DNA of 64,000 nucleotides from Holophagales bacterium UBA5704 (GTDB lineage: Bacteria > Acidobacteriota > Thermoanaerobaculia > Multivoradales > UBA5704). Below, piece after piece: positions 5,027 through 20,957 of this stretch. Location: NCBI GenBank assembly GCA_002420005.1, contig DIHE01000052.1, positions 855-64,854 on the forward strand, written 5' to 3'. The position numbers and the translations under genes were made by a program. Each line of letters starts with the position of its first letter. Within the stretch, counting starts at the first letter, position 1. Under the pieces are notes generated by a model. It saw only the letters and a program-made list of their open reading frames with translations, did no database searches and was not told the DNA's origin.

Positions 5027-5030
5027 CTCG

Positions 5031-5426: not shown

Positions 5427-5450
5427 CGCGGGGCCGCGGCTCGCGCCTCC

Positions 5451-5905: not shown

Positions 5906-5951
5906 CATCACGCTCGTGGATCTCGCGTAGACAAGTGAGCCGTGTGAGCTC

Positions 5952-5980
5952 TTGACGAGCCTTGGGGCCAACCCTAGACT
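5952..5980 (+). promoter_or_regulatory. Candidate sigma70-type promoter of the plus-strand operon (TTGACG - 17 bp - TAGACT)
   Basis: TTGACG at 5952-5957, a 17-nt spacer, then TAGACT at 5975-5980, in a locally AT-richer stretch just downstream of the repeat array. Pattern match only. Confidence 0.3.
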
Positions 5981-7739
5981 AAGAATTCTGCCAGGGTTTA
6001 CAGCATGCGGGGCAGTCGGCTCAGGAGTGCTTCTTGTAGGCTCTCAAGGGAGATTGAATTTGCCGGACAGCGATGACCTCAGCCATCACGAAACGCAGAC
6101 CGCGTTGCCGGGCCCCCTTCTCGTAACCGGATTCTGGGACAAGGTGGGGACCTGGGCTTTGCCGGCGTCCTCGCTCTCCCTGGCCTCGGCCTTCGTCCTG
6201 GTGGTGACGATTCTGTTCCTGGTCCGCAACCGGGAAATGCGCTCCCTTTTCCTGCTCTCCTGGAAGAGCGGTCTCGTCATCGCGGTCGTGGCGGCGGCTA
6301 TCGCCTGGTCCATCGTGATCCTGTGCGGCCGGCGTCCTGGACGCCTCTGGCCCCGGGTGTGGGCGCTCATCGTGGCCGGTCTGTGCACCGCCTCGGTGAT
6401 CCTCGTGCCGCTTTTCCCCGAGGCCACCTGGGTCAGTGCCTTGACCGTCGCCGGCGCTGCCGCAGCCGTGACCCTGGGTTCGCGCCTCGTGCGGCTGCCG
6501 CCGGACAGCGGGATGATCCCGAAGATCGCACCTCTGACAGCCCTCCTGGTTCTTGCGGGTGTCCTTCCCGCGGTTGCGTGGCTGGGCGACTCCATCGTGG
6601 CCGGCAAGAGGGAACGGGTCGCCGCCATGATCGAGCAGGTCCGGCGGTGGACCACCGAGGTCGCGGCGGTGGCAGGCCGCGACTGGACCGGCGGCGGGTG
6701 GGAGGACGCCAACCGTGCCGCCGCGTCGCTCGCGCAGATTCAGCCGGCCGCCAAGCTCGACCTCTCTCTCTGGCGCGAGGCCTTCTACCTGGAAAGGGAC
6801 CAAGAGCTCGCCCAGGAGGTGGGAAAGCTTCTGCAGGCGACCGCCCAGGGATTCGACGAGGACCGGGTGCCCCGGGTCTCGCGCCTGCGCGATCCCGCCT
6901 TCTATTTCGACCCGGTGGCGAAGCGCTGGGAAGAGAGCGCGGTCTTTCCCGAGGCGAGCGAGACGGTCGGCCGCTACTTCCAGGAGATGGGGCGCATCTT
7001 TCAGGAGCTGGACCTCCAGGTGGGCCTCGCCGAGAGCACGGCTCTAGCGGAGCTGAAGAAGAGCTATCTGGAGGAGAGCCGGCCGGGCGTGGTGAAACAA
7101 CTGAGCGGGCAGATGCAGGAATGGACGGACCATTGGGCCGTCTTCCGTGTCCCCGGGCACGACACTCTGCTCGGCTTCTCGGAGATGCCCCTCGGCAAGC
7201 TGCTGAAAAGCCCGATTCCGACCCTGGGCATCCCTGCGTCGGATCTCCCGGTTCTTCTGAGCCTCTCGTTTCAGCGTGTCCGCAGTTTCAAGCTCATCCC
7301 CGGCTGCCGGCCCCTGGCGCCCTACACGGAGACGAAGGATGGGTCGTCGCGCCAGTACTCGCGGCTCGATTGTTTCTCCTATGGACCCCGGACGGACACC
7401 TTGGGGGCCTGGCCGCGGATCGAGATGCGGCTGGTCTATGCATCGCAGGCGAACAGAGGTCTCCTGAGCGACCAGAAGCCGTCCGAGATCTACTTCCTTT
7501 TCCCTCTACCGGAAGGCCGGGTGGAGAATGAGTTTCAGAAGCAGGTGATGTCGGATCTCGCGGAGGCGGTTCGCGAGACCACGGAGCGGGAGGTGGCGCC
7601 GATCGACCGGAGCGGCTCGACCGAGAACGGCTTCCGTGTTCGCGGCGAGGGCTTGACGATCACCGTCTACAAGCCCTCTTTCGAGCCGCTGTACGAGAAG
7701 CGCAAGGCCCTGGTGGTCCGGGCGGAGAGGAAAGGATGA
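5952..7739 (+). CDS. Hypothetical polytopic membrane protein (about 6 N-terminal TM helices plus about 370-aa soluble domain); first gene of the plus-strand operon
   Basis: Track ORF 5952..7739. The TTG at 5952 coincides with the putative -35 box, so the true start is probably later, e.g. TTG 6060 preceded by AAGGGAGA. Hydrophobic segments include SLASAFVLVVTILFLV, GLVIAVVAAAIAWSIVIL, WALIVAGLCTASVILVPLF and LTALLVLAGVLPAVAWL. The stop overlaps the next gene's ATG (ATGA at 7736). Confidence 0.6.
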   Translation: MTSLGANPRLRILPGFTACGAVGSGVLLVGSQGRLNLPDSDDLSHHETQTALPGPLLVTGFWDKVGTWALPASSLSLASAFVLVVTILFLVRNREMRSLFLLSWKSGLVIAVVAAAIAWSIVILCGRRPGRLWPRVWALIVAGLCTASVILVPLFPEATWVSALTVAGAAAAVTLGSRLVRLPPDSGMIPKIAPLTALLVLAGVLPAVAWLGDSIVAGKRERVAAMIEQVRRWTTEVAAVAGRDWTGGGWEDANRAAASLAQIQPAAKLDLSLWREAFYLERDQELAQEVGKLLQATAQGFDEDRVPRVSRLRDPAFYFDPVAKRWEESAVFPEASETVGRYFQEMGRIFQELDLQVGLAESTALAELKKSYLEESRPGVVKQLSGQMQEWTDHWAVFRVPGHDTLLGFSEMPLGKLLKSPIPTLGIPASDLPVLLSLSFQRVRSFKLIPGCRPLAPYTETKDGSSRQYSRLDCFSYGPRTDTLGAWPRIEMRLVYASQANRGLLSDQKPSEIYFLFPLPEGRVENEFQKQVMSDLAEAVRETTEREVAPIDRSGSTENGFRVRGEGLTITVYKPSFEPLYEKRKALVVRAERKG

Positions 7740-8989
7740 GCGAGCAGGAGACGGGCAGGTCCGATTATGTAGACGACGAGGACGAGGGCGAGAGCCCGCT
7801 CTTGTCGTCGGTGCCGGAGGAGCCCTCTTCCAAGTGGGGGGATCGCCCGATTCCGCTCCCTCCGTCATCGCTGCCGCCGGTCGAGCCGGAGGAGGAGAGG
7901 GACCAAACAGGTCCGTCTTCCTCTCAGGAGCCTCCCCGAGCCGGGTCTGCCGCTCCCGCTGCCCGGCCGGGGCCTGCGGACGCGCTCGTGGAAGAGACCG
8001 AAGAGGGAGCTCCCTTCAACCTGCCGGGGGTGGAGAAGCTGGGGATCATCGGCGGCAAGGGGGTGGGGAAGAGCTTTCTCTTCCAGGCCATGGTCTTCCG
8101 TGCCTATTCGAAAAGCCAGGCGGGCGCGATGAGCCTCTTTCTCGAGAAGGTCCGGCTCTTTCATGCCCTGCAGAGGTCGGATAAAGCGCGCCCGCTCAGC
8201 CTCGGCGAGTTCGGAAAACGATACATGACCTGGGGGCGCCTGCCGCAGACCCTCCTGTCGAATCAGGCCTGGTACCGCCTCCGTCTGCACTGCCGAACCG
8301 GGCTTTTGCGCGAGAAGGAGTCAACCCTGGATGTCGAGTTTTTCGACGGCTCCGGGGAAGGGTTTTTCGAGGCCGCCAGGAGGCGCGGGATCAGCGAGAT
8401 CTGGCGGGACGGGTATCTGGACGCCAAGGTGATGGTCTTCTGCCTGCCCCTCTGGGTGGCCTTCCCGGGGAGCCGGATGACCACGGCGGATCGGCGGGAG
8501 CGCAACGTGGTTCTCGAGGGATTCGAAAGGGTCGTCCAGAACTACGAAGCCCTGCGGAGTGAGGGGGGGCGCGAGAACCAGCGGGTCAAGAGCATTCTGG
8601 CCCTCACCATGGCGGACGATCCCCGCACTGCCCTCGGCACGTTGTATGAAAAGTGGATTTCCCCCTATCTGGCCTCGCCGCACTCGTATCTGCCCCATCT
8701 GCAGAAAGAATCGGGGGTCGCCCGCTACCTGGCGAATGCGCGCCAGGTGTCGGAAGCCCTGCACCGGGAGCTGGCCGCGAGCCGCGACCCGCGTGTCAGC
8801 TCGATCTCCCAGACGCTGGACTATCGCGGTGGCAGGCCCTGGCTGATCCCTCTCAGCGCCGTCGAAGGAACCCGCCTCGACCGGATCGAGCGCGAGAAGC
8901 AGACCGGCGAGCGCCTCGCTCCGGTACCGGTCCATGCCGAGCTCCCTCTGCTCGTGGCTCTCTGCGAGCGGTACAATGCCCTGATGTGA
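7736..8989 (+). CDS. P-loop GTPase-like protein with acidic/Pro-rich N-terminal tail
   Basis: G1 is GIIGGKGVGKS, G3 is FFDGSGEG (DxxG), a G4-like motif is LTMADD, and a G5-like motif is LSAVEG. The first roughly 100 aa are low-complexity (DDEDEGE, PPVEPEEE). ATGA overlap with the upstream gene. Confidence 0.7.
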   Translation: MSEQETGRSDYVDDEDEGESPLLSSVPEEPSSKWGDRPIPLPPSSLPPVEPEEERDQTGPSSSQEPPRAGSAAPAARPGPADALVEETEEGAPFNLPGVEKLGIIGGKGVGKSFLFQAMVFRAYSKSQAGAMSLFLEKVRLFHALQRSDKARPLSLGEFGKRYMTWGRLPQTLLSNQAWYRLRLHCRTGLLREKESTLDVEFFDGSGEGFFEAARRRGISEIWRDGYLDAKVMVFCLPLWVAFPGSRMTTADRRERNVVLEGFERVVQNYEALRSEGGRENQRVKSILALTMADDPRTALGTLYEKWISPYLASPHSYLPHLQKESGVARYLANARQVSEALHRELAASRDPRVSSISQTLDYRGGRPWLIPLSAVEGTRLDRIEREKQTGERLAPVPVHAELPLLVALCERYNALM

Positions 8990-9008
8990 CGGCCAAGGGA
9001 GATCACTC

Positions 9009-12000
9009 GTGAGCACAGCTCCTGCGTCGCTCTCCGTCTACCGCGGCCAGCAGGCGCTCCGGGGACGGATTGGTGAAGGCGGGGGACGGCTGGTCGCCCA
9101 GGGGGAGCAATACCTCGACGCCGAGCCGCCGCTCGATCGGGACGCCGATCTGCTCGACGCGATTCGCCCCTGGATGAGCCTCGACTCGGATCCCGTGGAC
9201 CATCAGGTGCTCGCAGACCGCCTGGAGGCCTGGTCGTTCTTCACCTGCGGCGACCGGCAGCTGGTCGCGCGCCTGGTCTCGGCCGGCATCTATGATCGCC
9301 GCGCCGCCTACTTCGCGCACGGCCGCCTCTGGCCTCTGCCTGCCGGGCCCGGCATCGACCCGGGCCTGCACGTCGGCCGTTCCGAGGCTTTTGAAGCTCC
9401 TTGGCGCGATGACGGCCCACGCCGGCCTGTTCCCGAACCGGCGCCGGCTTTCCTCGGCGTGGAGCCGATCAAGGCGGAGCCCGAGGCGGCCTCTCTCTTC
9501 CTGGGCCATCTGCTCCAGAGTGCCGTGCGCGGGCGGCCTCTGGCGGTTCTGGCTCCGCTGTCCGACTTCGCCGTCGGGGCACCGTTTCACAAGCTCCTGT
9601 CGTTCGCCCGGGGCTCCCTGCCGGCGGACCTCCGCCAGACGACCCGGGTGCGCATCTACACCCGCACGCCGGAGCTTTTCCTGCGCGACTCCGGGCCTGC
9701 GCTGATCGCGGTGCCCGCGGACATGGAAGAGCGGGTGAAGAGCTTCCGCCGCGATGCTCTGCTGATCGACCGGCAGGGGAGAGCCCTTTCCGGGGAGCCG
9801 CCCGATCCGGCGGCCCTGGAGTACGCCCGCGCCGTGGTCCGGCGCGCCGCCAAGACCCCCAGGAGCCTCACCCGGTTCGGAGAGCGGTTCCGGGACCGGC
9901 ACCCCCGCGCGGCGGGCGAGCTGCCCGGCCCTCGCGACGTGCTCGCCGTCCCCATCATCTACAACTTGGCGGACGCGCTGGCCGGCTCTTCCGAGGACCG
10001 CACCGGCTTCGTGGTCGACTTTCTGCCGCAGATCGGCCCCAAGCTCGGAGCCGTCGTGGACTGGCAGCAGCTCCTCTCCGGCGAGGAGTGGCGGACGTTT
10101 CCCCTGGACCCGGTGCTCGAGCTCCTGCTCCAGGATTCCCAGGGGATGCCGCCCGGGATGCAGGAGATCCAGAAGGCCATCGAGCGGGCGGAGCGGCTCA
10201 AGCACGCGATGGAGCGGGGAGAGGTCGACCGGTTCCGCGTTCAGACGATCCTGCAGTCCGCGCCGCCCTCCCGGCTGGCGGCGGTTGTCCGCGAGATCCT
10301 CCAGGTTCCCGGCCTGTTCGAGAAGGACGGACCCTGGGGCGACGTTCTGGCACGCCTCCTGGAGACGCTCCGCCGCCTTCGGGGCCTGCCGCCGGAGCTG
10401 GCCGCCGCGCTCGTCCAGTCGCTGGTCGACGAAGGCAAGCTCCGCCATTCGTGGCTGGCTTCCCTGGCTCCGCAGTGGATCGAGCACGAAGATCTGCTCA
10501 AGGCGCTCGGAGTGGACGCGCTGCTCGATTTGGCCCGCTTTCTGGAAGCGGAACAAAGCCTGAGGACGGTGTTCGCTCACGTGGACGTCCGGATGGGCGC
10601 CGACCCCCGGTCCACCACCGATGCCCTGATCCGCACCGGCTGGTGGACGGCTTGGCGGAGGATGTCCGATTTGATGATCCAAGAAGGGGAGAAGAAGCTC
10701 CAGGCGGCGGAGGCCTGGCTCAGCTCGCCCCTCTGGACCGCAGGCGGGGCGAGGCGGGAGGCGAAACGGGAGGACTGGACGCGGGTGATGGATGACCTGC
10801 CGGCCAGCCTGTATGAAGCGGGCCGTCCGGCACCCTGGAGCGGCGCCGAGGAGCCGCGCCGCCGCCTGTGGCCGTGGATTCCTCCTTTTGAAGAGGAGCA
10901 GATCCAGGACCTGGCCGAGCGGGTTCCGGATCTCCCGTCTCTCGCCGGGCTGGCGGACACCCTGGAGACGACGAAAGATCCGGGGCTGGACGTCGGTGAG
11001 GCCATCTGGCGCTTCGTCCTGCGCAAGTCGAGGTTCCATCGCCATTTCGCGAGCGAGGATGCGCTGGGCTGGCTGCTGGAGACGCGGCCTGACGGGCTGC
11101 CGCCGCTGAGCCTGGCGGATTCCCTTCGGCTCTGGCAGATGGCGGGTCCTCGCCGGAACCAGGCGGGCCGGGCGCGGCTGGCCTCGGTCTGCCATGGTCT
11201 CGAGAACGACGCGCAGGCGAGGGAAGGCATCCTTGGTGCCGATGATCCATACCTCTGGGACAAGCCCACGTTTGCCCAGGCGGTGGCCTTCTGGATGCAC
11301 CGGCGCGGGTCGGTGGAGAAAATCGGCTTGGATGTCCTCGACAAGATCGAGCAGCAGATCGCCGCCGAGCCCTTGCGGCGCCCCTCGGCCACGCGACAGC
11401 TGGTCGATGAGCTCGTGCGGCGCAATCTCACGAAATGCGCCGCGCTCCTGAGTCCGAACCTCGCCGGAGTTGTCGCTCTGGAGAACCTGGTGGAGTCGGC
11501 GGTCGATGCCCTTGCAGAGGGAGCGCACGATCACCCGTGCTGGAAGAACCTGGCGGACCTGACGGAGCGTGGCGCCACGGACAAGCATCTGCTCTCCTCG
11601 CTCGCGGAGCGGGTTCGGAACACGACGGGCGAGCAGAAGGCCGCTCTCCTGCGGAACGGATGGCGCACGTTCGAAGCCGCCACCCAGGCGCAGCCGTTCT
11701 TGACCCACGTACGTCCCGAGCAGGCCGATCTGCCGGTCTTCGATCTCGCGGCGAGCCTGTCGAAACCGGGCGGGCTGGGGACCGCGGTGCTCGGCGTGAT
11801 CTTCCTGGCCAACGCGAGCCAGAAGGCAAAGCCGGAATGGTGGGGGGGGCTCCTGCGCGAGTTTTTCAAGTGGCGCCGGTATCCTCCCAGGGATTGCGCA
11901 GACGACCGGAGGGACGTGGCGATGGCTCTCGTGGTGCGCCTTCTCGGAGATCTCAAGCCCGAGGAGCGGAAGGCTTTCTGGAAGGCCATGGGACAGAGAA

Positions 12001-12032
12001 ACGATTGGGACCTTTTGGTGGGAGCTCAATGA
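9009..12032 (+). CDS. Large (1007 aa) mostly alpha-helical hypothetical protein, candidate GTPase-associated partner
   Basis: GTG 9009 lies 6 nt after AAGGGAGA. The single long ORF has coding-like composition and no catalytic motif that I recognise. The N-terminal segment (LDSDPVD...AWSFFTCGDRQLVARL...YDRRAAYFAHGRLW) weakly resembles the N-domains of the two minus-strand proteins at 14380-17546. The stop overlaps the next ATG. Confidence 0.65.
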   Translation: MSTAPASLSVYRGQQALRGRIGEGGGRLVAQGEQYLDAEPPLDRDADLLDAIRPWMSLDSDPVDHQVLADRLEAWSFFTCGDRQLVARLVSAGIYDRRAAYFAHGRLWPLPAGPGIDPGLHVGRSEAFEAPWRDDGPRRPVPEPAPAFLGVEPIKAEPEAASLFLGHLLQSAVRGRPLAVLAPLSDFAVGAPFHKLLSFARGSLPADLRQTTRVRIYTRTPELFLRDSGPALIAVPADMEERVKSFRRDALLIDRQGRALSGEPPDPAALEYARAVVRRAAKTPRSLTRFGERFRDRHPRAAGELPGPRDVLAVPIIYNLADALAGSSEDRTGFVVDFLPQIGPKLGAVVDWQQLLSGEEWRTFPLDPVLELLLQDSQGMPPGMQEIQKAIERAERLKHAMERGEVDRFRVQTILQSAPPSRLAAVVREILQVPGLFEKDGPWGDVLARLLETLRRLRGLPPELAAALVQSLVDEGKLRHSWLASLAPQWIEHEDLLKALGVDALLDLARFLEAEQSLRTVFAHVDVRMGADPRSTTDALIRTGWWTAWRRMSDLMIQEGEKKLQAAEAWLSSPLWTAGGARREAKREDWTRVMDDLPASLYEAGRPAPWSGAEEPRRRLWPWIPPFEEEQIQDLAERVPDLPSLAGLADTLETTKDPGLDVGEAIWRFVLRKSRFHRHFASEDALGWLLETRPDGLPPLSLADSLRLWQMAGPRRNQAGRARLASVCHGLENDAQAREGILGADDPYLWDKPTFAQAVAFWMHRRGSVEKIGLDVLDKIEQQIAAEPLRRPSATRQLVDELVRRNLTKCAALLSPNLAGVVALENLVESAVDALAEGAHDHPCWKNLADLTERGATDKHLLSSLAERVRNTTGEQKAALLRNGWRTFEAATQAQPFLTHVRPEQADLPVFDLAASLSKPGGLGTAVLGVIFLANASQKAKPEWWGGLLREFFKWRRYPPRDCADDRRDVAMALVVRLLGDLKPEERKAFWKAMGQRNDWDLLVGAQ

Positions 12033-13267
12033 GCAAGCAGATCACGTTCTTTTGGGACAGGCGGCAGGCGGGCCATGTGTATGATTTCGAGATCGACGAT
12101 GGCGCGCGGCGGCAAAGGTTTTCGGTGTTCTCCCAGAAGCCCCTGGAGGAAAAGCTGGTCAAGAACCGGCCGCTCCCCAAGGAGAACAAGGGAGACCTCC
12201 AGCCCGAGATCGAGAGGATCAAGGCGATTCTGCAGGGGCAGGGAGGCGTGATCTCCCTGGTCCACGATAAGGGCCTGAATCAAGTCTCCCTCCGGACGAT
12301 TCCGGTCGCCACCCAGGCCGGGGCTGCGATCGCTTCTGTCGGCATTCTCCGGCCGGGCCACCCCTCGTTGGCGCTGGAGGCCTTGAACGAGCCCCAGGGA
12401 GCACCCTTTCCCGTGGGCTCGCATGCGTTGATTCCGGTCGACCCGGAGACCGAGACGCAGCTACGTGGCTTAAAGGAAAACCTCGGGCATCTGCCCGGGG
12501 ATCTGGAATCGCTGGCCCTTCACGCCATCCGGGAGCCGAGCCTGGAGTCGCGGGTCGGTCTTCTGGAGGCGCTCAACCGAAAAGGCGGGGATGATTCGCC
12601 GACGGGTCCGAAATGGCTGCGCCGTCTCCTGGAGAAGACCTCCTGGGGCGGCCGTCCCGCCTCGCTCTGGCCGGCGGTCGCGGCCCTTCTGGGACTGGTG
12701 CTGGTGGCCAATACAGTCGTCCTGTACTCGATCCTGAAGACGGACAACGGCTCGATCGTGGTGCCTTTGATGTCTGCGGGAAGAACCCCTCCGGCCGCGG
12801 CGGCCACACCGGGCCAGAAGATCTTCGCGCTCACCGAGGCGGTTCGCGGCAAGGCGGAAGATGCCCGGATGAAGGCTCTGGCGGAGGGTCACTTTGTCAG
12901 TGTGCAGAAGGAAGATGAGGTCGAACGCATCCTGACCCCAGGGGAAGAGGGAGTGCTTCTGGTGCGCGGCCTCATGAAGCTGGAAGCTCTCCGTCTGAAT
13001 CAGGAGGATGCGGCCGGCCTCTTCGACAGTGCCAACAATCCGACCCAGGTCAACAACTTCTATAAGGGGCGCGCTCTGAACGCTCGATCCAGGGACCTGC
13101 TGGCGGCGCTGGCCTGCGTCGCCTTCGGAGCCCCGGGATTGCCGAAGACCTCGACGGCGGACCCTGTCCCGTTCGCCGAGGAAGGGAAGGATTGCACGAG
13201 CTACCCGCTCGACAAGGCGTCGCCGGGGCTCGACGACTTGTTGAAGCTCCTTCAGGACACCCGTTAG
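12029..13267 (+). CDS. Hypothetical single-pass membrane protein (412 aa)
   Basis: ATG 12029 overlaps the stop of the previous gene (ATGA). The track ORF 11435..13267 is an upstream shadow extension inside the previous gene. A central TM helix is LWPAVAALLGLVLVANTVVLYSIL. Confidence 0.65.
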   Translation: MSKQITFFWDRRQAGHVYDFEIDDGARRQRFSVFSQKPLEEKLVKNRPLPKENKGDLQPEIERIKAILQGQGGVISLVHDKGLNQVSLRTIPVATQAGAAIASVGILRPGHPSLALEALNEPQGAPFPVGSHALIPVDPETETQLRGLKENLGHLPGDLESLALHAIREPSLESRVGLLEALNRKGGDDSPTGPKWLRRLLEKTSWGGRPASLWPAVAALLGLVLVANTVVLYSILKTDNGSIVVPLMSAGRTPPAAAATPGQKIFALTEAVRGKAEDARMKALAEGHFVSVQKEDEVERILTPGEEGVLLVRGLMKLEALRLNQEDAAGLFDSANNPTQVNNFYKGRALNARSRDLLAALACVAFGAPGLPKTSTADPVPFAEEGKDCTSYPLDKASPGLDDLLKLLQDTR

Positions 13268-13276
13268 ACCGGCGGC

Positions 13277-14377
13277 ATGGAAACGCTTTCTCTGCGCGTC
13301 GTCGCCCCGCCGGAGGCCGAGATCCGGACAATTCCCCTGCCTCTGGAAGCGGGCGGCTCCCCCTGCTCGGTCTACCTGCGCTGCCTTCCGGGGGCGGCGG
13401 CGATCCATTGTGCCTTTGTGAACGGTGACGGCTCCATCGTGCTGCGCACCGAGGTCCAGGCCACCGGCGGCGAGAAGGTCCGGATCGGCGTGGCCCTGGG
13501 GACGGAGCGCGAGATGCGGGTGTGGAGCCCCGGGCGCAAGGTGCTGACCCTTCCCAAAGAGGCACCGTACGAGCCGCCGCCCACCCTCCGCGTCGCCGGC
13601 TCGGGGACCCGCCTCGACCTCGCCTTCGTCATCGACGGAACCGCCCGCCGCTTCTCGTTCGACGGCAAGCAGTCCGTCTCCGAGCCGTGGCTGGGCAAGC
13701 AGGTCTGGGAGGAGCCGGTGAACCTCCTCGCGGGCTTCGCGGCGGCTCTCGTCGAAGGCTCGCAGGGGAGCCGTTTTTCCGTTCTGGCGTTCGGCGACGA
13801 AGGGATGAAAGGCGTCGAACCGGAGGATCTCGCCGACGGCTACCTTCTGCGGCCGCCTGCGGGGGCTGGGAGGTTCTTTCCCTGGAGCCCGGAGCGGTGC
13901 CGCGAGGCTCTGTCCGCGGTCGAGCCGACGCCGGGGGGCGACTTCGTCGATGCTCTCGCCGAGGCTCTCCATGCCTGCCGGAGCCTGCCGTGGGGCGAAG
14001 GGACGCGCCGGATCGTGTTGGTCTGCGGAGATTCTCCAGGGCACTCCGTGGCGCATCCTCTCCCTCCCGGCGCCGATGCCCGGGTACGCAGGCTGGACGT
14101 CGACGTCGAGGCCGAGCATCTGCACGAGAGGGGGGTCGAGATCGCCACGCTGTACTTCGATCCTCAGGGGAATGCCGGTCTTGGTCAGGCGGTCTTCCGG
14201 AAGGAGCTTCTCGCCGCGGCCCGCGACCAGTACCGGAGGCTGGCCTCCCTCCCGGAGATGGCCTTCGAGCTGTCCCGCTTCCAGTCCGAGGAGGCGGCCC
14301 GGGTGGTCAAGGACGTGCAGGGGCTGCTCGCCCGCCGGGCCGCGCCCGGCGAGCTGATCGGGGTTTCGGAGCCCTGA
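13277..14377 (+). CDS. von Willebrand factor A (vWA) domain protein with about 100-aa N-terminal beta-rich domain
   Basis: vWA strand/MIDAS region LDLAFVIDGTARRF, then SRFSVLAFGDEG and RRIVLVCGDSPGH, in the typical vWA order. The MIDAS position reads DGTAR instead of DxSxS. Confidence 0.65.
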   Translation: METLSLRVVAPPEAEIRTIPLPLEAGGSPCSVYLRCLPGAAAIHCAFVNGDGSIVLRTEVQATGGEKVRIGVALGTEREMRVWSPGRKVLTLPKEAPYEPPPTLRVAGSGTRLDLAFVIDGTARRFSFDGKQSVSEPWLGKQVWEEPVNLLAGFAAALVEGSQGSRFSVLAFGDEGMKGVEPEDLADGYLLRPPAGAGRFFPWSPERCREALSAVEPTPGGDFVDALAEALHACRSLPWGEGTRRIVLVCGDSPGHSVAHPLPPGADARVRRLDVDVEAEHLHERGVEIATLYFDPQGNAGLGQAVFRKELLAAARDQYRRLASLPEMAFELSRFQSEEAARVVKDVQGLLARRAAPGELIGVSEP

Positions 14378-14379
14378 CG

Positions 14380-15870
14380 TCAGCTTTTCCCGGCGGCCGT
14401 CAGCTCTTCCTGGATCAGGGCCTTCACCCAGGGCTTCCGTTTCACCGGCGGCCATTCGCGCAGCGCCTGTTCGAGCCGCCGTGTCCAGGGGTTTGCCGGG
14501 CACTTCAGGCTGTTCCGGAGGGCGTTCCGGAGATCGGTCTGTCCCATTTCTGCCAGCAGGCCGGGGCTCACAGAGAGGGCGAAGAGCAGCTCCGGGACCC
14601 GGCGGCTCTCGAAGGCTCCGACGGAATCGGGATTCGTACCGGGACGCAGGACCAGCGCAGCGCTGCGCAGCACGTCCAACTTGACCTTCCACTGTGCGTC
14701 ATCCACGGCATCGGGCTTGAGCTCTCGGAGCGTCCTGATCCAGGAGGGGAAGAGGGTCTCGTGAATTGGAACGAGCTCCGAAATGGGATGGCGTGACCAC
14801 CGGCCCAGGTCAGGCCAGCGAGCTTCGACGGCACAGGCGAAGGTATGGAGTGCTTCGAGCCAGGCCGGCGCCCCCTTGGGCGGGGCCGGCAGGGCGATCC
14901 TGGCGTCCGGCCGCACGGCCTCCAGGGGTGTGAGGGGGAGGGTATGCACGGCGACCGGCGGCTCCGCAGGGGGGCGGGCCGAAGACCCTGCCGCTTGCAC
15001 AGGCACGCTGGGGACGAGCACGGCCCTCTCCGGCTGGAGCTCCAGGAGAGCCTTGGCGAGAGGCCAGCCCTGGTCGTCGGCCGGCTCCTGCCGGTGAGCC
15101 TGCTCCACGAGATGGGGAGGAACGGCGATCACGTCCCAGCGCCTCCCGAGGTCCGCGAGAGAGGCGCGTCCCGAGGGAATCCAGCCGGCGAGCGAGAGGG
15201 TCTCGGCGATCGTGCGCGGGAGGGGGAGAAGAAGGACGGCGAGCGCGAGGGGAGAAAGGGGGGCTTCGAGACCCGTCAGACAGGCGGGCTTGCGTCCTGC
15301 CAGGATCTGGGTGTAGAGCCCGGCCAGGCTCTCGCGCTCCACGGATGCGTGCAGCTCCTCCACCCCTCGCGCCACCAGAGACTCCAGGTTTCCAGGAATC
15401 GGTGTGGGCTCCTCGGCGGCGAGCTGGAGGAAGAACCAGGGATCCTGCCAGGCTCGCTCCTCCCTATAGAGCGTCCAGACCTTCGCATCGAACGAGGCCA
15501 CCTGCTCGAGGAGGAGGAGGGCTCCCAGGGCGGCGGGCGTGCCGCGGCCCGGGGTCCAGGTGAGCAGCTGCTTTTCAAGGAAGTTCGACCGGCCCACGGC
15601 ATCCGAGGCCGGGCTCCGGTAGATCGCGGCTGCGCAGTACCGATCTCCCTGGCGCAGCCAGAGTGGTGCCGGGACCGGCTGGTCCTCGGAGCCGAGGGTG
15701 AGTTGTTCTGCCAGTCCTTCGGTATCGAAGCCGCTGCTCCGGGCGATCCAGCGGTAGTCGGTGGAGGCGCCCGGCGCCTTGCCCCAGATGCCCCGTTCGC
15801 AGTGGAGCCTCCCGGAGGGCAGAGCCTTGAGCTGGGCGAAGGCCGGCCATTGCAGGATCGAGGTGCTCAT
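14380..15870 (-). CDS. Hypothetical protein; its N-terminal roughly 290 aa are paralogous to the upstream GTPase-fusion protein, and it has no GTPase domain
   Basis: The true start is ATG 15870 (MSTSILQWPAF...), overlapping the upstream stop (ATGA). The track ORF 14380..16047 carries a shadow extension. Shared blocks with the neighbour are ERGIWGKAPGASTDYRWIA, LGSED, GRSNFLEKQLLTW and LLLPLPR. Confidence 0.7.
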   Translation of the reverse strand: MSTSILQWPAFAQLKALPSGRLHCERGIWGKAPGASTDYRWIARSSGFDTEGLAEQLTLGSEDQPVPAPLWLRQGDRYCAAAIYRSPASDAVGRSNFLEKQLLTWTPGRGTPAALGALLLLEQVASFDAKVWTLYREERAWQDPWFFLQLAAEEPTPIPGNLESLVARGVEELHASVERESLAGLYTQILAGRKPACLTGLEAPLSPLALAVLLLPLPRTIAETLSLAGWIPSGRASLADLGRRWDVIAVPPHLVEQAHRQEPADDQGWPLAKALLELQPERAVLVPSVPVQAAGSSARPPAEPPVAVHTLPLTPLEAVRPDARIALPAPPKGAPAWLEALHTFACAVEARWPDLGRWSRHPISELVPIHETLFPSWIRTLRELKPDAVDDAQWKVKLDVLRSAALVLRPGTNPDSVGAFESRRVPELLFALSVSPGLLAEMGQTDLRNALRNSLKCPANPWTRRLEQALREWPPVKRKPWVKALIQEELTAAGKS

Positions 15871-17546
15871 GCCGCCTTCGTGACCTCGTCGAGCAGCCAG
15901 GCGAAAGGCTCCATCACGTTGACCGGGCTCCCTCCGGGGCCGATGCGGGGGCTCAGCTCGTTGTCGTAGAAAACGACCGACTCGACCAGCCCGTAACGCA
16001 CGCGGACTCCGGCGGCGGAGACCGGGAAGAACCTGAAGAGGGTGCAATAGTGGCCGAGCAGGTCGGCCAGTCCCATCTTATCGTGCCGGCGGACGAAGTC
16101 GTCCGGATTCTCGGTGGCGCGCTGCAGGTCGGCTTCTGTCCGGATCAGGAGGTCCGCCTTGGAGAGGCAGACGGCGATCGGCCGCGGGTCCTTTCCGGTT
16201 CGCTCATGAAAGAGGCTTTCGAGCGTGCTCAGCACCTGGCTGTACAGCGTGTCGCCCTGGGCGGTGGGGTCGAACAGCAGGATCAAGCCGTTCGCCTCGG
16301 TCAGATGCCGGCGATGCTGGTTCATGGCCTCCGTCAAGTCGGTGGAGGCGCTCCCGAAGCTGGTGGAGGCGCTGCCGGCCCGGTCCTCCAGCCGCAGAGA
16401 CACCCCGCGGCTGGTCGCGCGGTGCTGGAAGTGGTATTCGACCGGCTCGGCCTCGAGACCGGTGGCCGACGGGAACTTGCGCTCCTTGCGGATCAGGTCT
16501 CGCATGTTCCGGAAGAAGTCTCTGGAGGCAGGCGCAGGATAGGCGTCATAGGTGTTCGACCGGTTTCCCAGATTGGCGAGGTAGAGCTGGGCCAGGAGGG
16601 CGGTCTTGCCGGCTGCGGAGGCCCCCCAGAGGGCGAGCTGGACCGGGCGCCGTTCCGGCGCCGGTACGCTGCGGAGCGGCCGGCCCGAGGTCGGGGCCGG
16701 ATTGCGGCTGAAGATGGCGCGCGCCAGACGGCGGCCCCGTTCCTGATGCTCCGGCGTGGGCTCCGTCGCCGGAGCGACGGGTGCCTCCCCTCCCAAGGTT
16801 GCATTCCAGCAGCTCTGGAGGCTCTCGACGCCGGCTCGCCGCGAGGGCAGCCAGCCGGCCACGGAAAGCCTGTCGGCGACGTCCCGCGGCAGGGGGAGGA
16901 GGAGGGCGGCCAGAGCTTCGGGGCCCAAGGGAGCGGCGAGGCCGTCCAGAGGCACGGCCCGGTGGCCGGCGATGAGGCGTGCATAGAACGCGGCGAGAGA
17001 CTCCTCGGACACGGTCGTCTCCAGCTCGGAGAAACCAGTCTCCACCGTCTCTTCGAGCTCACCGAGAGAGACGGCGAACGGTGCGTGGTCCTGGGGGGAG
17101 AGGAGGAGAGGATCTTCCCCGTTGAAGGAGCCGCGCCGGTCCCACCAGATCCCTGCGTTCGTCTGGGCGACGCGGGGGAGGAGCGCCATCGCGCCGAGGG
17201 TGGCCGGGATGGCCGCGGCGCGCCGCCAGGTGAAAATCTGTTTCTCCAGAAATCCCGAGCGTCCCGCGGCATCGGCCGCCGGGCTTGCGTAGGTCGCCAT
17301 GGCGACGTACAGCTCGCCGAGGCTCCGCCAGTGTGTGGCGGTTCGGGGGGCGTCCTCGCTTCCCAGCACGAGTTGCTGCTCGATCCTCTCACGGCGGGGG
17401 AAGGCGGAGCTGGCGGCGATCCACCGGAAATCCGAGCTGGAGCCGGGGACCTTGCCCCAGACGCCGCGCTCATGGTCGATGCGGGGAGGCAGAGATCCGC
17501 CTTCGAGGGCGGGCCAGGCGGCAAGAGAGCGGCCGAGCGAGGTCAT
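15867..17546 (-). CDS. Fusion protein: conserved N-terminal domain (paralog of 14380-15870) plus C-terminal P-loop GTPase
   Basis: The true start is ATG 17546 (MTSLGRSL...), overlapping the kinase stop (ATGA). GTPase motifs: G1 LWGASAAGKT, G3 LEDRAG, G4-like CLSKAD, G5-like VSAAG. Confidence 0.75.
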   Translation of the reverse strand: MTSLGRSLAAWPALEGGSLPPRIDHERGVWGKVPGSSSDFRWIAASSAFPRRERIEQQLVLGSEDAPRTATHWRSLGELYVAMATYASPAADAAGRSGFLEKQIFTWRRAAAIPATLGAMALLPRVAQTNAGIWWDRRGSFNGEDPLLLSPQDHAPFAVSLGELEETVETGFSELETTVSEESLAAFYARLIAGHRAVPLDGLAAPLGPEALAALLLPLPRDVADRLSVAGWLPSRRAGVESLQSCWNATLGGEAPVAPATEPTPEHQERGRRLARAIFSRNPAPTSGRPLRSVPAPERRPVQLALWGASAAGKTALLAQLYLANLGNRSNTYDAYPAPASRDFFRNMRDLIRKERKFPSATGLEAEPVEYHFQHRATSRGVSLRLEDRAGSASTSFGSASTDLTEAMNQHRRHLTEANGLILLFDPTAQGDTLYSQVLSTLESLFHERTGKDPRPIAVCLSKADLLIRTEADLQRATENPDDFVRRHDKMGLADLLGHYCTLFRFFPVSAAGVRVRYGLVESVVFYDNELSPRIGPGGSPVNVMEPFAWLLDEVTKAA

Positions 17547-20500
17547 GCCCGGCCTCCCCGCGCCTGCGAGCGGCGGTCCCGGGCTTCGAGGACCCGTTGG
17601 CGGACGGACCAGGGGGGCAGCGCTCCGGAGGGGCACCGGCGCAGCTCTGCCAGGAGAGTGTCGTCGTCCGGGGCTTCCTGGCCCGGCCATAGGTCCTGGG
17701 CGGCCAGCGCCAGCTCCTCGGCGGCCAGGCGCAGCGTGTGGTGCTCGGCGAGGTCGAGAAGCTTGCGGGCATCGTCGAGCTGCTCCTGAGCCGCCTGCCA
17801 GTCCCAGGGTGGGTCGGCAACCCCATAGACGAGCCCTGCGATGCGATGGGTGAGCTCCGGACAGAACTTCCGCAAGTCGACCGCCTCGGCTCGTTCCAGG
17901 CGGTGCTTGAGCGCGTCGCGCAGCTCACGGGCCTTGCGTTGATCCTGGTGCAGGCGGCCGAGGAGCGGCGCGCACTCCTCGATGAGCCGCTGCCGGCGTT
18001 CGAGCCGGGTGACCGGACGGCCGCCCTCCGCCATCTCCCGGTCGATGTCCGCCAGGCGCGCCTCCGCCGCTCTGCGCTCATCCGGACCCAGCACCCCGGA
18101 GTGATCCTGTCCGAGGGCGGAGCGCGCCTCTTGCAGGATCTCGCCCTGCATCCGGAAGGCCTGCTCCGCCGCCTGCTGCGCCTGCATGGCGATCTCGTGT
18201 CCGGCGGCGGCCGCCCGGGCGGCTTCCTGCGGAGAGGCGCCGCCCGCCAGCCTGGGCGGTGCCGGCAGGGAGACCGGACGGCCGATCCGTTCCAGCACCT
18301 GTGAGATCGAGGTCGCTTCGGCCATGCTCGCGTCGAGGAGCTTCCGGCACCGCGCCGCGAAATCGCTCCGCAGGGCTTCCAGCTCGGAGTCCAGGGAGCT
18401 CGCCGTCGCCTGGGCGGCATCCAGAGAGCCTGCGGCGCCGAGGGCATCGATCCTTTGCAACAGGTCGGCCGCCCCGTCGATCTCGATGGAACCGGCCGCC
18501 GCCCGCAGCTCGGCATGCCGGGCGAGCAGACGGTTCTCGCGCTCCTCCAGCTCCTTCAAGCCCTCGGCGGCCTGCCGGCGCAGCTCTTCGAGATGGCGTT
18601 CGATCTCGCCGGTGCGGCGGAGCCGGTGCAGGGTCTGCCCGTCTCCTGGGTGGCGGGTGAGGTCGCGGATCTCGTCCTCCAGGTTCTCCGACTCCTGCCG
18701 TACGGCGGCCGACAGAGGCATGCCGCGGAGCGTTCGCAGCCGTTCGTGGAGGTGCTCGACATGGCGCGCGAGGCCCTCCCCGAGGGGGCCTTCCTGGTTC
18801 CTCGCGGTCGTCAGGAACCGCTTGCGGAGCTCCTCGAACGATTCCAGCCAGCCGGTGTGGTCCGGCGGGTTCTCGACCTGGCGCCTGCGCAGCGCCCGCA
18901 GCTGTTCCTCCAGGGCCGGCTGGGAACCGGCCACGGCGATGAGCATCTTCACCTCCTGGTCGAGCCCGGCGAGCTGGCCCTCCCGCAGCGCACGGGCCTT
19001 CTGGGCGAACCGCTCGCGCAGCTCCCGGGCGTCGGTCAGCACCGCCTCCACGTCGGGGAGCCGCGGCGCAAAACCGAGGCTGCGGTGGCGCCGGTCGATG
19101 TCGCCGACCTCCCGGTGCCACTCGCCCGACTGTCCGGACCAGGCCTGGAGCTCCTTGACCAGAGCCGGGATCTTGCCCACCTCTTCGAGCGGGTCCCTGG
19201 CCTGTTTTGCGGCTTCGCGGAGCGGTTGCACCAGGCTTTCGAGGCGTGCGAGCCAGGCCTCCGAGGCGCCCTCGTTGCGGAGCTGCTCCTGAAGATGGGG
19301 CAGCGCGCCGAGATCCTTTGAAAGCTCTGAGCCGTCGAGCCGGGAGACCATCCTGTCGGCTTCGCCGAGCTTTTCCAGGACGATTCCATGGAGCCGGATC
19401 TCCTCCCGGAGCCTCTGCACCTGGTCCCGGTCGTCCTCCAGCTCCGCCATGCGGCGGATCTCGACGCCGATCCTCTCGAGGTCCGTGGCCCAGCGTGTGC
19501 AAAGGGTTGCGAACCAATCTCGGGTCAAGGCGTCGGACAAGCCCTGGGAATCCGCCGCCAGGCCGCGGGCTTCGCTTTCGGCCTTCTGGGCTTCGCCGAT
19601 GAGGTCGGAGAGCGGAAGGGCCATGCGGTCGAGCTGATCGGCGCGCTCCTTGTACAGCTCGATCTGAGCGTCTCCGATCCAGATCTGGCGCGCCGTCCTC
19701 TCCATCTCCTCGTGCAGCCCTGCGGCGGCCTTGGCGAAGTGGCGCGCCCGATCCGGGACGCCCGCGCGCACCCGGCGCAGACCGTCCTGGATCTGTTGCA
19801 GCCTGGCGCGCGGCGTGGCGGAAAGGCGCTCGATCCAGCGGGTCCAGAACGGCGACCCGGGTGTCGGGGTGGGAGGAGCGGGCGGCGCCGGTACCGGCAG
19901 CGGCTCCGGCTGGGGGAGAGAGGAGAAGGTTCGTCCGGTCGGGACGCCCCCCCGGCCTCCGGCGAAGGAACCCTCCTGGAGGTCGATTCCCATCAGAGCC
20001 TGCTTCAGAGCGGCTGCGTCGGGATAGCGTGCGGCGGGGTCCTTTTCCAGGCAGCGGGCAAGAACCGGTTGCAGCTGGGCCGGGAGGGTGGCGGGAAGAA
20101 AGGGCTGACGCAGACGGCCCTGCCGGATCTGATCCTTCAGATCCTCATCGGATTCGGCGTCGTGGGGGAGCTGGCCGGTGAGCATCTGGTAGAGCACGAT
20201 GCTCACGGACCAGAGGTCGGATTCCGCCCCGGCCTGGTTGTCCTTCAAGCGTTCCGGAGAGAGGTAGGGGATGCTGCCGAAGATATGGCCGGTGAATTTC
20301 CGGCTCCTGGAGACGCTTTTGGCAACGCCGAAATCCAGCAGGCGGACACGGCCGCCGTTTTCGATCCGGATGTTCTCCGGCTTGATGTCGCCATGCACCA
20401 CGCGTTCGTTGGGCCCCAATCCCTGGAGCGGCACCCGGCCGCAGGCGTCCAGAATGATGCAGAGCTGCACGGCGAAGTCGAGGGCGCGGCGCGGAGGAAG

Positions 20501-20803
20501 GGGGCCATGCAGCAGCTCCGAGAGATCGTCGCCCGCCACGTACTCCATCGCGATGAAGAACCGGCCTTCGATGTTGCCCTTCTCGAAGATGCGCGCGATC
20601 TGGGGGACTTCCCGGCTGAGCTGCTCCTGGATCTCGGCGCCCCGCCTTTCGGCCTCGAGCACCTCGGTATCGACGGAGGTGATGACCTTCAGTGCGACCT
20701 CCCGGTTGTAGTCCGGGTCGAACACGAGATGGACGTCACCGGCGAACCCGTGTCCGAGCCGCCTCTTCACCTGGAACCGGCCGATCCTTCTCTCGTAGGT
20801 CAT
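17543..20803 (-). CDS. Eukaryotic-like Ser/Thr protein kinase with Pro-rich linker and about 780-aa coiled-coil/helical C-terminal region
   Basis: Kinase subdomains: GHGFAGDV (Gly loop), VALKV (catalytic Lys), HGDIKPENI (catalytic loop), LLDFGVAKS (DFG), SPE. The linker is PQPEPLPVPAPPAPPTPTP. The long E/R/L/A-rich tail has heptad-like character. ATG 20803 follows AAGGAAAA. Confidence 0.85.
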   Translation of the reverse strand: MTYERRIGRFQVKRRLGHGFAGDVHLVFDPDYNREVALKVITSVDTEVLEAERRGAEIQEQLSREVPQIARIFEKGNIEGRFFIAMEYVAGDDLSELLHGPLPPRRALDFAVQLCIILDACGRVPLQGLGPNERVVHGDIKPENIRIENGGRVRLLDFGVAKSVSRSRKFTGHIFGSIPYLSPERLKDNQAGAESDLWSVSIVLYQMLTGQLPHDAESDEDLKDQIRQGRLRQPFLPATLPAQLQPVLARCLEKDPAARYPDAAALKQALMGIDLQEGSFAGGRGGVPTGRTFSSLPQPEPLPVPAPPAPPTPTPGSPFWTRWIERLSATPRARLQQIQDGLRRVRAGVPDRARHFAKAAAGLHEEMERTARQIWIGDAQIELYKERADQLDRMALPLSDLIGEAQKAESEARGLAADSQGLSDALTRDWFATLCTRWATDLERIGVEIRRMAELEDDRDQVQRLREEIRLHGIVLEKLGEADRMVSRLDGSELSKDLGALPHLQEQLRNEGASEAWLARLESLVQPLREAAKQARDPLEEVGKIPALVKELQAWSGQSGEWHREVGDIDRRHRSLGFAPRLPDVEAVLTDARELRERFAQKARALREGQLAGLDQEVKMLIAVAGSQPALEEQLRALRRRQVENPPDHTGWLESFEELRKRFLTTARNQEGPLGEGLARHVEHLHERLRTLRGMPLSAAVRQESENLEDEIRDLTRHPGDGQTLHRLRRTGEIERHLEELRRQAAEGLKELEERENRLLARHAELRAAAGSIEIDGAADLLQRIDALGAAGSLDAAQATASSLDSELEALRSDFAARCRKLLDASMAEATSISQVLERIGRPVSLPAPPRLAGGASPQEAARAAAAGHEIAMQAQQAAEQAFRMQGEILQEARSALGQDHSGVLGPDERRAAEARLADIDREMAEGGRPVTRLERRQRLIEECAPLLGRLHQDQRKARELRDALKHRLERAEAVDLRKFCPELTHRIAGLVYGVADPPWDWQAAQEQLDDARKLLDLAEHHTLRLAAEELALAAQDLWPGQEAPDDDTLLAELRRCPSGALPPWSVRQRVLEARDRRSQARGGRA

Positions 20804-20957
20804 CGTTTTCCTTGGGCTTCAGTCATGGTGGAGCGATCGGTATCGAATTCTAACCCATGAGTGCACCCAAAGCCTTGCCCCCACCCTGTCTCCCTTGCTA
20901 CACTGAAGTGCACCTTACAGGCACCGAACAGCGCCCTCCCAAGCGGCGGGCTCGGCT

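Follow-up and report, generated by a model that had tools for sequence, protein, structure and literature searches.

The subject of this work is a block of eight genes, here called g1 to g8, in a 64,000-nucleotide stretch of DNA from Holophagales bacterium UBA5704 (GenBank assembly GCA_002420005.1, contig DIHE01000052.1), which is referred to below as the window. The block is made up of two convergent operons, g1-g2-g3-g4-g5 on the plus strand and g8-g7-g6 on the minus strand, and a first interpretation made from the letters of the DNA (the sequence-only reading) had proposed it as a conflict system. We find that the locus is a kinase-fused, tubulin-less subtype of a larger system of Acidobacteriota and Gammaproteobacteria, and that it fits best among the computationally predicted FtsZl1/GTPase/vWA/kinase gene neighbourhoods, as a variant of them not described before. 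It stands apart in three ways: its GTPase is partnered by a TagF-like protein and not by GAP1, its gene set is fixed, and a kinase fusion alternates with a trio of genes that includes a tubulin homologue.

The relatives of the block were collected by scanning a g7 profile against one genome per GTDB species (185,579 representatives), which gave 55 loci, 37 of them with relatives of the g7/g6 pair (about 36 species), and these loci were searched by tblastn with all eight proteins. All eight genes, with order and orientation kept, are present at L001, L002, L004-L007, L009, L021, L023 and L035, and partial blocks are found on short contigs. The hosts of the full block are Thermoanaerobaculia, Holophagales, other Acidobacteriota and one uncultured proteobacterium, while Chromatiaceae, Methylococcaceae and other Gammaproteobacteria retain g8cc-g7-g6 (g8cc being the coiled-coil part of g8), usually with g5 and g3 nearby. 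Both operons occur together end to end in two phyla, at more than 12 loci and at 25-70% identity, despite changing flanks. Since order and orientation are kept in Acidobacteriota and Gammaproteobacteria alike, the eight genes are one co-inherited, chromosomal system, and the comparison of gene neighbourhoods that the sequence-only reading had called for thus came out in its favour. Its view of the block as accessory is also upheld: the flanks differ in all five of the closest, kinase-type loci (histidine kinase and aminotransferase; cobalamin genes and a peptidase; NYN and DUF2750; lysine biosynthesis; SMC), so the block has been inserted or retained in different contexts.

At least 20 of the related loci carry three extra genes that precede the g8-g7-g6 operon on the same strand, upstream of g8cc. 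The first encodes a protein of about 1100 amino acids with the Pfam domain Tubulin_2, which we take to be the FtsZl1 family. The second (u831) encodes about 830 amino acids with no known domain, and the third (u959) about 960 amino acids with a C-terminal MZB Zn-binding domain (Zn-ribbon). This tubulin trio is carried by L059 (positions 1-7684; the same locus as L006), L002, L004, L005, L009, L010, L020, L021, L023, L029-L036, L054 and L067. The common form of the system has 11 genes, with Tubulin_2/FtsZl1, the proteins of about 830 and 960 amino acids, the g8 coiled coil, g7 and g6 in operon 1 and g1-g5 in the convergent operon 2.

The trio has no match in the window, and tblastn with the Tubulin_2 protein of L059 found nothing in the window, L001 or L064-L066. 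These are the loci in which g8 is fused to a kinase: the fusion is seen only in the clade of the window (the window itself, L001, L064, L065 and L066; g7 identity at least 54%), and all five loci have the full g1-g5 operon and no tubulin trio within 10 kb. The tubulin trio and the kinase-fused g8 never co-occur, and this mutual exclusion suggests that the position they share is an exchangeable input or output of the system. The sequence-only reading had counted the kinase among the system's components; it is present here, but as a clade-specific fusion in place of the Tubulin_2 gene and the two-gene module that accompany most relatives.

Some related loci depart from both forms. L061 (the same locus as L026, on a 2.98 Mb contig of an uncultured gammaproteobacterium) is a variant without the tubulin trio and without the kinase; upstream of g8cc come genes for a histidine kinase and a GerE response regulator, g6 and g5 are separated by a SAM methyltransferase, and UvrD_C/RecD-like helicase genes occupy the place of g2 and g1. 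The cultured Lamprocystis purpurea DSM 4197 has two g7-g6 pairs on different scaffolds (L020 and L027), the L020 copy being accompanied by the tubulin trio, g8cc, g5 and a g3-like gene. A distant GTPase, with 25-29% identity to the GTPase domain of g7, is found at L037-L055 (Nonomuraea, Streptosporangium), where a conserved actinobacterial block also encodes two unannotated proteins, a Ser/Thr kinase and a DUF4407 protein. These loci were considered as canonical GAP1/vWA references and rejected, as Pfam finds no DO-GTPase, GAP1 or vWA domain in them and they represent a different system.

All eight open reading frames of the block were confirmed at the positions first assigned to them, each with a coding-type G+C content at third codon positions (GC3) of 0.80-0.85 in a window with G+C of about 68-75%. 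The eight genes are also those called independently on public copies of the contig, namely the Acidobacteria metagenome-assembled genome (MAG) GCA_003504885.1 and the Logan assemblies of two sequencing runs. As reported earlier, there are four ATGA start/stop overlaps, at 7736 (g1/g2), 12029 (g3/g4), 17543 (g8/g7) and 15867 (g7/g6), which can be read directly in the sequence, and the stop codons of g5 and g6 converge with 2 nucleotides between them. In the deposited MAG record DNZC01000467.1 (L056) g3 is called as fragments of 256 and 756 amino acids and g2 as fragments of 91 and 99 amino acids; g3 (1007 amino acids) and g2 (417 amino acids) are intact in the Logan assembly (L057) and in the window, and the frameshifts in the MAG record are probably assembly artefacts. 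In the long-read MAGs of L001 and L002, g3, g5 and g8 are likewise frameshifted.

Pfam recognises only two domains in the block, DO-GTPase2 in g7 and Pkinase in g8. The proteins g1 to g6 have no significant Pfam match even at E≤10, with g2 reaching the P-loop level only (E 0.1-0.23), and NCBIfam gave nothing significant for the block proteins. With PADLOC v2 the one match above the P-loop level is that of the generic kinase domain in g8, to the PD-T4-6 and mad6 kinase models; g2 and g7 reach the P-loop level (E 0.007-0.02), and g1 and g3-g6 have no match. GAP1, GASH, FNIII, MoxR and EAD/effector domains are not detectable by Pfam in the eight proteins or their orthologues, which agrees with the earlier remark that no enzymatic effector is visible.

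For the g7/g6 pair, structural models were built with AlphaFold2 (AF2) and compared by Foldseek. The g7 protein combines an N-terminal TagF-like (longin/DENN-like) module, predicted from AF2, Foldseek and alignments at amino acids 1-290 (16677..17546, minus strand), with a C-terminal small GTPase at amino acids 300-559 plus stop (15867..16649, minus strand) that is identified by Pfam DO-GTPase2, Foldseek and alignments. The g6 protein (14380..15870, minus strand) is modelled as a TagF-like module (longin plus alpha/beta DENN-like, amino acids 1-280) followed by a helical C-terminal domain (amino acids 330-496), and has no GTPase domain. Amino acids 305-476 of g7 match PF19993 DO-GTPase2 with 39.3 bits (cut-off 27; E 7.6e-10), and g6 and the N-terminal domain of g7 are paralogues with 44% identity over 285 amino acids (E 8e-51), so the earlier description of a fusion protein and an N-domain-only paralogue is correct. 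At L021, L023, L029-L035 and L054 a gene of its own encodes the GTPase, beside one for a single TagF-like protein. Fused in g7 and separate neighbours elsewhere, the GTPase and the TagF-like module are likely to be functionally linked.

An alignment of 108 homologues reveals a full G1-G5 set of GTPase motifs in g7: G1 WGxxxAGKT, switch-I T362, G3 E387-D388-R-A-G391, G4 SKAD and G5 SAAG. The Walker-B Asp (D388), which is adjoined by a Glu (E387), is invariant in an alignment of 18 sequences, and E387-D388 is conserved in at least 90% of the 108. There is no catalytic Gln after the DxxG motif. In the N-terminal module of g7 the motif SRAxDAAGRxGFLEKQ contains an invariant D92 together with R96 and E101, each in at least 90% of the 108 sequences. 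These longin-loop residues are conserved in both paralogues (D92/R96/E101 in g7 and D90/R94/E99 in g6), with SRAxDAxGRxGFLEKQ as the common motif.

The model of g7, built with the same 108 homologues, has a pLDDT of 90.7, and that of g6, built with 48, a pLDDT of 88.9. The C-terminal half of g7 matches Rab, Ras, Arl, Gtr1 and SR in the PDB at E 1e-5 to 1e-4, and TagF of Acinetobacter baylyi (9t0n) is also among the matches of g7, over 342 columns. For g6 the same TagF structure is the top match (E 3.5e-3, probability 0.99, 340 columns), and the Foldseek probability against Pseudomonas aeruginosa TagF (6iz8) is up to 0.99. DENND10 (probability 0.72, 267 columns) and the GATOR1 chain 7t3a_B (0.75) are next, followed by SEA-complex chains, a chain of the FLCN-FNIP2 complex and the VAMP7 longin; as a group, longin-DENN regulators rank second after TagF for g6 (probability 0.57-0.75, E 0.04-0.6). 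The DSSP order of g6 and g7 is beta-beta-alpha-beta-beta-beta-alpha and then an alpha/beta lobe, which in these models fits a longin domain with a DENN-like lobe. We therefore describe the N-terminal domain of g6 and g7 as a putative two-lobed module whose best structural match is TagF, and then longin/DENN regulators. Structure prediction, one of the checks suggested with the sequence-only reading and carried out here on g6 and g7, returned the expected GTPase fold and, for the N-domain, a resemblance to TagF and longin/DENN proteins that had not been foreseen.

The remaining minus-strand protein, g8, has a Ser/Thr kinase domain at amino acids 10-267 (20003..20776, minus strand; Pfam Pkinase, E 5e-37). 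The HGD catalytic loop, DFG and SPE motifs are all present, and on this basis the kinase is predicted to be catalytically intact. Its C-terminal region (amino acids ~330-1086; 17543..19816, minus strand) is common to all g8 homologues, and is probably a coiled coil or otherwise helical, to judge by the coiled-coil-type sub-threshold Pfam matches of the homologues; of the kinase and coiled coil described earlier, it is the kinase that has a direct match of its own. The homologues in relatives are 770-930 amino acids long and align by tblastn only to residues ~330-1078 of g8, so those in tubulin-trio loci have no kinase. We also considered whether g8 could be a decapitated FtsZl1, and rejected this as the C-terminal region of g8 has no similarity to the coiled-coil/C-terminal part of the L059 FtsZl1 protein.

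In the plus-strand operon, hydropathy supports the membrane topologies first given for g1 and g4. The g1 protein (6060..7739, plus strand; 559 amino acids by gene calls, ribosome-binding site and start codon) is polytopic, with about 5 transmembrane segments N-terminally and then a soluble domain of about 385 amino acids; it has orthologues in the equivalent position at 12 loci at least and no Pfam, NCBIfam or PADLOC match. The g4 protein (12029..13267, plus strand) is bitopic, with an N-terminal domain of about 215 amino acids (predicted cytoplasmic), one transmembrane segment at amino acids 217-235 and a C-terminal domain of about 175 amino acids. Its orthologues, in equivalent position, are weakly conserved (24-51% identity) and have no family matches. 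Between them lies g3 (9009..12032, plus strand), a soluble protein of 1007 amino acids with conserved orthologues, for which Pfam and PDB sequence searches gave no match and no detectable family.

The g2 protein (7736..8989, plus strand) is a P-loop NTPase with a disordered, Pro-rich N-terminus. In the family alignment its motifs follow the order of a GTPase, namely GGKGVGKS (Walker A), FFDGSGE (DxxG-like), LTMADD and SAxEG, and this is the part of its earlier designation as a P-loop GTPase that holds. No Pfam GTPase family and no DO-GTPase model matches g2, the matches being at the P-loop level only (ABC_tran, IstB, Roc), and the family profile likewise finds only P-loop matches in the PDB. 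Alignment of the g2 and g7 GTPase families by hhalign is colinear over G1, G3 and G4 and not significant (E 0.036-0.067).

The last gene of the operon, g5 (13277..14377, plus strand), encodes about 110 N-terminal amino acids and then a putative, highly divergent vWA-like domain. The order of its motifs, a hydrophobic strand ending in DGT (VIDGT), then AFGD, GGDFVD and GDSPG, fits a vWA domain with a degenerate form (DxTxR) of the metal ion-dependent adhesion site (MIDAS) motif. Pfam recognises no domain in any of 103 homologues, and the family profile finds no vWA protein in the PDB. When 41 members were scanned singly, the recurring sub-threshold Pfam matches were VWA_2 (3), VWA (2) and Integrin_beta VWA (1), at E 0.018-0.043. 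A search of 1.84 billion representatives with the family profile gave 501 matches, the best 150 of which are all family members, with no bridge to annotated vWA proteins. From the motif order and these sub-threshold matches, and with neither Pfam nor PDB giving a significant match to vWA, we think it likely that g5 has a highly divergent vWA fold, which is a more guarded statement than the original one. The metagenomic protein P0349 (1129 amino acids) fuses a g3-like region (amino acids ~24-690) to a complete g5 domain (amino acids 757-1128), without g4, and this Rosetta-stone evidence suggests that g3 and g5 work together.

Two published bodies of computational work bear on the locus. FtsZl1 operons carry vWA proteins, a diverged GTPase of the [S/T]KxD type, Ser/Thr kinases, transmembrane proteins and large uncharacterised proteins, and were predicted to form a membrane-remodelling machine (Makarova & Koonin 2010, PMC2875224). 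Like these operons, our locus has diverged GTPases (g7 and possibly g2), the g8 kinase, transmembrane proteins (g1 and g4) and large domain-less proteins, and orthologous blocks in at least 20 relatives are headed by a Tubulin_2 gene. Kinase fusion is also shared, though it occurs here on g8 and in some planctomycetes as an N-terminal kinase domain on FtsZl1 itself (PMC2875224). The clade of the window differs in having no FtsZl1 gene within reach, and its vWA-like g5 is too divergent for Pfam and does not have an intact MIDAS. The 2010 survey did not include Acidobacteria, Allochromatium or Chromatiaceae/Methylococcaceae (PMC2875224), and the g1, g3, g4, g6 and g8cc families and the TagF-like module are not in it. 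We found no experimental work on members of the FtsZl1/Tubulin_2 family in the literature searched.

The second body of work describes conflict systems of DO-GTPases and GAP1, with tubulin, HSP70 or kinase/PP2C/vWA themes, and reports the tubulin theme from Firmicutes and Actinobacteria only (Kaur, Burroughs, Iyer & Aravind 2020, PMC7159879). The g7 protein passes the DO-GTPase2 threshold and has the Glu beside the Walker-B Asp, and as in those systems there is a partner gene directly downstream (sometimes fused), a second P-loop protein and transmembrane components. To this extent the sequence-only reading was right to place an uncharacterised, DO-GTPase2-centred locus within these broad neighbourhoods, and our literature search returned no experimental work on it. 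The partner of the g7 GTPase is a predicted TagF-like module, not GAP1; the gene set is constant across loci, without variable effectors; and the phyla differ. Within the sensitivity of HMMER, GAP1 Pfam models had no match to g6 at E≤10 or to g7 at E≤0.01, and GAP1-N1/-N2/-M/-C, GASH, FNIII, Zn-ribbon-GTPase, EAD and effector domains were found neither in the window proteins nor in 57 g6 and 103 g5 homologues; the g6 homologues have no Pfam domain of any kind. The earlier comparison with GAP1/double-GTPase systems is thus not borne out: because GAP1, GASH/FNIII and a variable effector are all missing at the sensitivity of profile hidden Markov models, the locus is not such a system as defined. 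A vWA-MoxR ternary system, which had also been suggested, was rejected, as no AAA+/MoxR domain is present in the block or in related loci.

The resemblance to TagF points in another direction. TagF is a type VI secretion system (T6SS) assembly checkpoint built from an alpha+beta and an alpha/beta domain, the C-terminal alpha/beta domain being stated to have no homology to characterised proteins, and longin or DENN is not mentioned (bioRxiv 10.64898/2025.12.08.692957). The g6 and g7 N-domains match TagF structures (9t0n, 6iz8/2qnu) over both lobes. They differ from TagF in being duplicated and fused to a small GTPase, in having no sequence similarity to it and in the absence of T6SS genes from the window and the annotated related loci. 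TagF brakes the assembly of a large machine post-translationally, and by analogy the g6/g7 module may plausibly do the same. Eukaryotic longin-DENN regulators consist of a longin domain and an alpha/beta lobe, act on small GTPases as paralogous heterodimers and provide an Arg finger from the longin domain. With two paralogues, a GTPase without Gln and a conserved Arg in both, the modelled g6/g7 arrangement resembles those regulators (DENND10, NPRL2/NPRL3 of GATOR1/SEACIT, FLCN-FNIP, C9orf72-SMCR8), at the level of fold and with modest significance; a heterodimer and an activity as GTPase-activating protein (GAP) or guanine-nucleotide exchange factor (GEF) are putative. A 2012 survey traced only the longin/roadblock part to prokaryotes and treated the DENN and d-DENN domains as confined, so far as then known, to the DENN module of eukaryotes (PMC3521125), and no literature linking TagF with DENN or longin was found in the literature searched.

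Taken together these observations suggest a mechanism, on which we are evenly divided, in which a checkpointed GTPase switch gates the assembly of a membrane-bound complex. The TagF-like modules of g6 and g7 would pair via their longin lobes, as FLCN-FNIP, NPRL2-NPRL3 and C9orf72-SMCR8 do, and the pair would set the nucleotide state of the fused, Arf/Sar-like g7 GTPase. Since it has no catalytic Gln, this GTPase should need a residue supplied in trans, and the conserved longin-loop Arg (R96 in g7, R94 in g6) is a candidate finger. The g8 protein may scaffold the g6/g7 pair through its long C-terminal region, with its kinase standing in, as input or output, for the FtsZl1 polymer module of most relatives. 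The membrane part would be built by the g1-g5 operon, g1 and g4 anchoring g2, g3 and the vWA-like g5, and the TagF-like modules would hold assembly in check until a signal arrives, as TagF does in the T6SS.

Several points weigh against this account of the locus. The g6-g7 heterodimer, the Arg finger and all contacts between the operons are inferred. The likeness to TagF and DENN proteins is at fold level only (E 3.5e-3, TM-scores 0.3-0.4); it is accompanied by no sequence or Pfam match, and the g6 family profile gave only chance matches to PDB sequences. From its sequence g2 is not demonstrably a GTPase of the g7 family, the vWA assignment of g5 draws on six sub-threshold matches and motif order, and searches including Pfam yielded no fold assignment for g1, g3 and g4. 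As the search for FtsZl1 covered the 64-kb window, the gene could lie in another part of this genome. A tblastn search of plasmids and phages with g7 found no relatives.

The physiological role is the least certain step. Given that the mechanism is right, we lean tentatively, at somewhat less than even confidence, to a membrane response triggered by stress or by an invader, that is a conflict system, because of the patchy accessory distribution, the differing insertion sites, and the swapping of tubulin for kinase and of the second operon in Chromatiaceae; defence is plausible. The absence of an effector domain (Pfam) and of a PADLOC match beyond the generic kinase weakens this, as do the absence of a defence-island context in four of the five kinase-type loci and the lack of relatives on plasmids and phages, and the constant gene set, ordinary metabolic flanks and trafficking-like list of components lean to a cell-biological machine. 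The conflict role put forward by the sequence-only reading therefore survives as one of two published hypotheses, the other being the membrane remodelling proposed in 2010 (PMC2875224), and the evidence decides neither.

The best-surviving rival is that the block encodes a cytoskeleton-like, membrane-remodelling machine of normal physiology, as was proposed for FtsZl1 operons, in which small GTPases and longin/DENN-like regulators, together with a tether of coiled-coil type, an adaptor with a vWA domain and anchors in the membrane, would organise or reshape membranes or the envelope. We consider this unlikely overall, and a little less so if the mechanism above is right. Its parts mirror eukaryotic trafficking (a small GTPase, a longin-DENN regulator, a coiled coil, a vWA-like protein and, in relatives, a tubulin homologue), and its constant gene set has no variable effector, no toxin or nuclease domain by Pfam, and no defence match by PADLOC beyond the kinase already mentioned. 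Ordinary metabolic genes flank most loci, and the hosts include Chromatiaceae and Methylococcaceae, both of which have intracytoplasmic membranes. It is also what the 2010 analysis predicted (PMC2875224). A machine of normal physiology is less easily reconciled with so patchy an occurrence (about 36 of 185,579 species representatives, in two phyla), with insertion sites that differ even between close relatives, or with paralogous copies in some genomes, and the exchange of tubulin for kinase and the variable second operon of Chromatiaceae resemble the modular shuffling of conflict systems.

Pure signal transduction is improbable. On this view the Ser/Thr kinase, together with a small-GTPase switch like MglA/MglB or Roco, would sense an envelope signal via g1, g4 and g5, would control polarity, motility or development and would build no structure. 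The predicted intactness of the g8 kinase would suit such a relay, as would the pairing of a small GTPase with a longin-type regulator, as in MglA with roadblock MglB (PMC3521125), and there is a hybrid histidine kinase in the flank of the window and a histidine kinase with a response regulator upstream in L061. Against these stand the absence of the kinase from most family members, the roughly 5,000 amino acids of conserved, large non-enzymatic proteins (g3 and g8cc, with FtsZl1, u831 and u959 in relatives), which exceed the needs of a relay, and the lack of an output regulator conserved in the block.

That the block is an accessory or regulatory module of a T6SS, or of another contractile or secretion system, we regard as very improbable, even with TagF as the top structural match for g6 and the g7 N-domain. 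A TagF fold, a Ser/Thr kinase and a vWA domain do also meet in the threonine-phosphorylation pathway of the T6SS, whose kinase PpkA includes a vWA domain, and a Walker-A NTPase domain is present in TssM. Neither the window nor the annotated related loci contain a T6SS core gene, Pfam gives no match to TagF (DUF2094) or IcmF, and in many genomes the block is complete in itself. That the operons are unrelated and simply adjoin each other, which convergent and separate transcription would allow, can be dismissed as exceedingly improbable, being contradicted by synteny across two phyla at the more than 12 loci, held at 25-70% identity while flanks change completely.

The start of g1 and its upstream region deserve separate mention. 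The sequence-only reading placed the start at 5952; it is most likely the TTG at 6060, the earlier position being 108 nucleotides too early. A ribosome-binding site, AAGGGAGAT, lies about 8 nucleotides 5' of the TTG at 6060, and an identical site precedes g3; a start at 6060 gives a g1 of 559 amino acids that matches the product of the gene callers. As for the TTG at 5952, it belongs to the -35 hexamer of a sigma-70-like promoter match for the g1-g5 operon (5952..5980, plus strand; TTGACG-17-TAGACT, a consensus match only), the sole such site within 5400-21000. About 60 bp 5' of this site ends an intergenic palindrome array (5450..5890), which is the upstream repeat array noted earlier. It has about 14-20 copies, read directly, of the 14-bp CCGAC-N4-GTCGG, phased at 21 bp or multiples of it (repeat-family spacings 168, 21, 63, 84, 42 and 21), and eight of the nine exact CGACNNNNGTCG matches in the window fall inside 5515-5820. 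Rfam had no match in 5000-21000, the array included, and Tandem Repeats Finder missed the array. A CRISPR-like reading was rejected, as the 14-mers are palindromic, phased at 21 bp and without spacers; the array is possibly a phased operator array or a hairpin array.

Beyond g8, at ~24150-27959 and about 4 kb away, are a PIN toxin gene with a small partner gene and then a 957-amino-acid TIR_2, AAA_16 (STAND) and TPR protein, corresponding to the VapBC and TIR-STAND genes described earlier. A hybrid histidine kinase and a class-V aminotransferase lie between them and the block, with no direct linkage to it. Much of the window is filled by a secondary-metabolite cluster of two megasynthase genes: a 5368-amino-acid hybrid of polyketide synthase and non-ribosomal peptide synthetase (NRPS) at 28207-44313, with ketosynthase-acyltransferase (KS-AT) followed by at least 3 condensation-adenylation-peptidyl carrier protein (C-A-PCP) modules, and a 3215-amino-acid NRPS at 44933-54580 with 3 C-A-PCP modules.

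The FtsZl1/GTPase/vWA/kinase neighbourhoods have two competing computational readings, membrane remodelling (2010) and conflict (2020), and the acidobacterial and gammaproteobacterial branch described here adds to them a fixed set of 8-11 genes. In this branch the duplicated TagF-like module, often fused to a GTPase, offers a concrete and testable regulatory mechanism, and would link TagF of the T6SS, a protein without an assigned fold family in the recent literature searched, to small-GTPase regulators. The full form is carried in culture by Lamprocystis purpurea DSM 4197 (L020), which brings the 15-year-old FtsZl1 question within reach of experiment. It is doubtful, and would be of wider consequence, that g6 and g7 are a genuine bacterial homologue of the eukaryotic longin-DENN module, acting as a heterodimeric GAP or GEF on the fused Arf/Sar-like GTPase inside a machine of tubulin, coiled-coil, vWA and membrane proteins. 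If this were true, the block would be a prokaryotic system that organises membranes along the lines of eukaryotic trafficking, TagF of the T6SS would have branched off from the same module as a protein on its own, and DENN-type regulators would not be purely eukaryotic.

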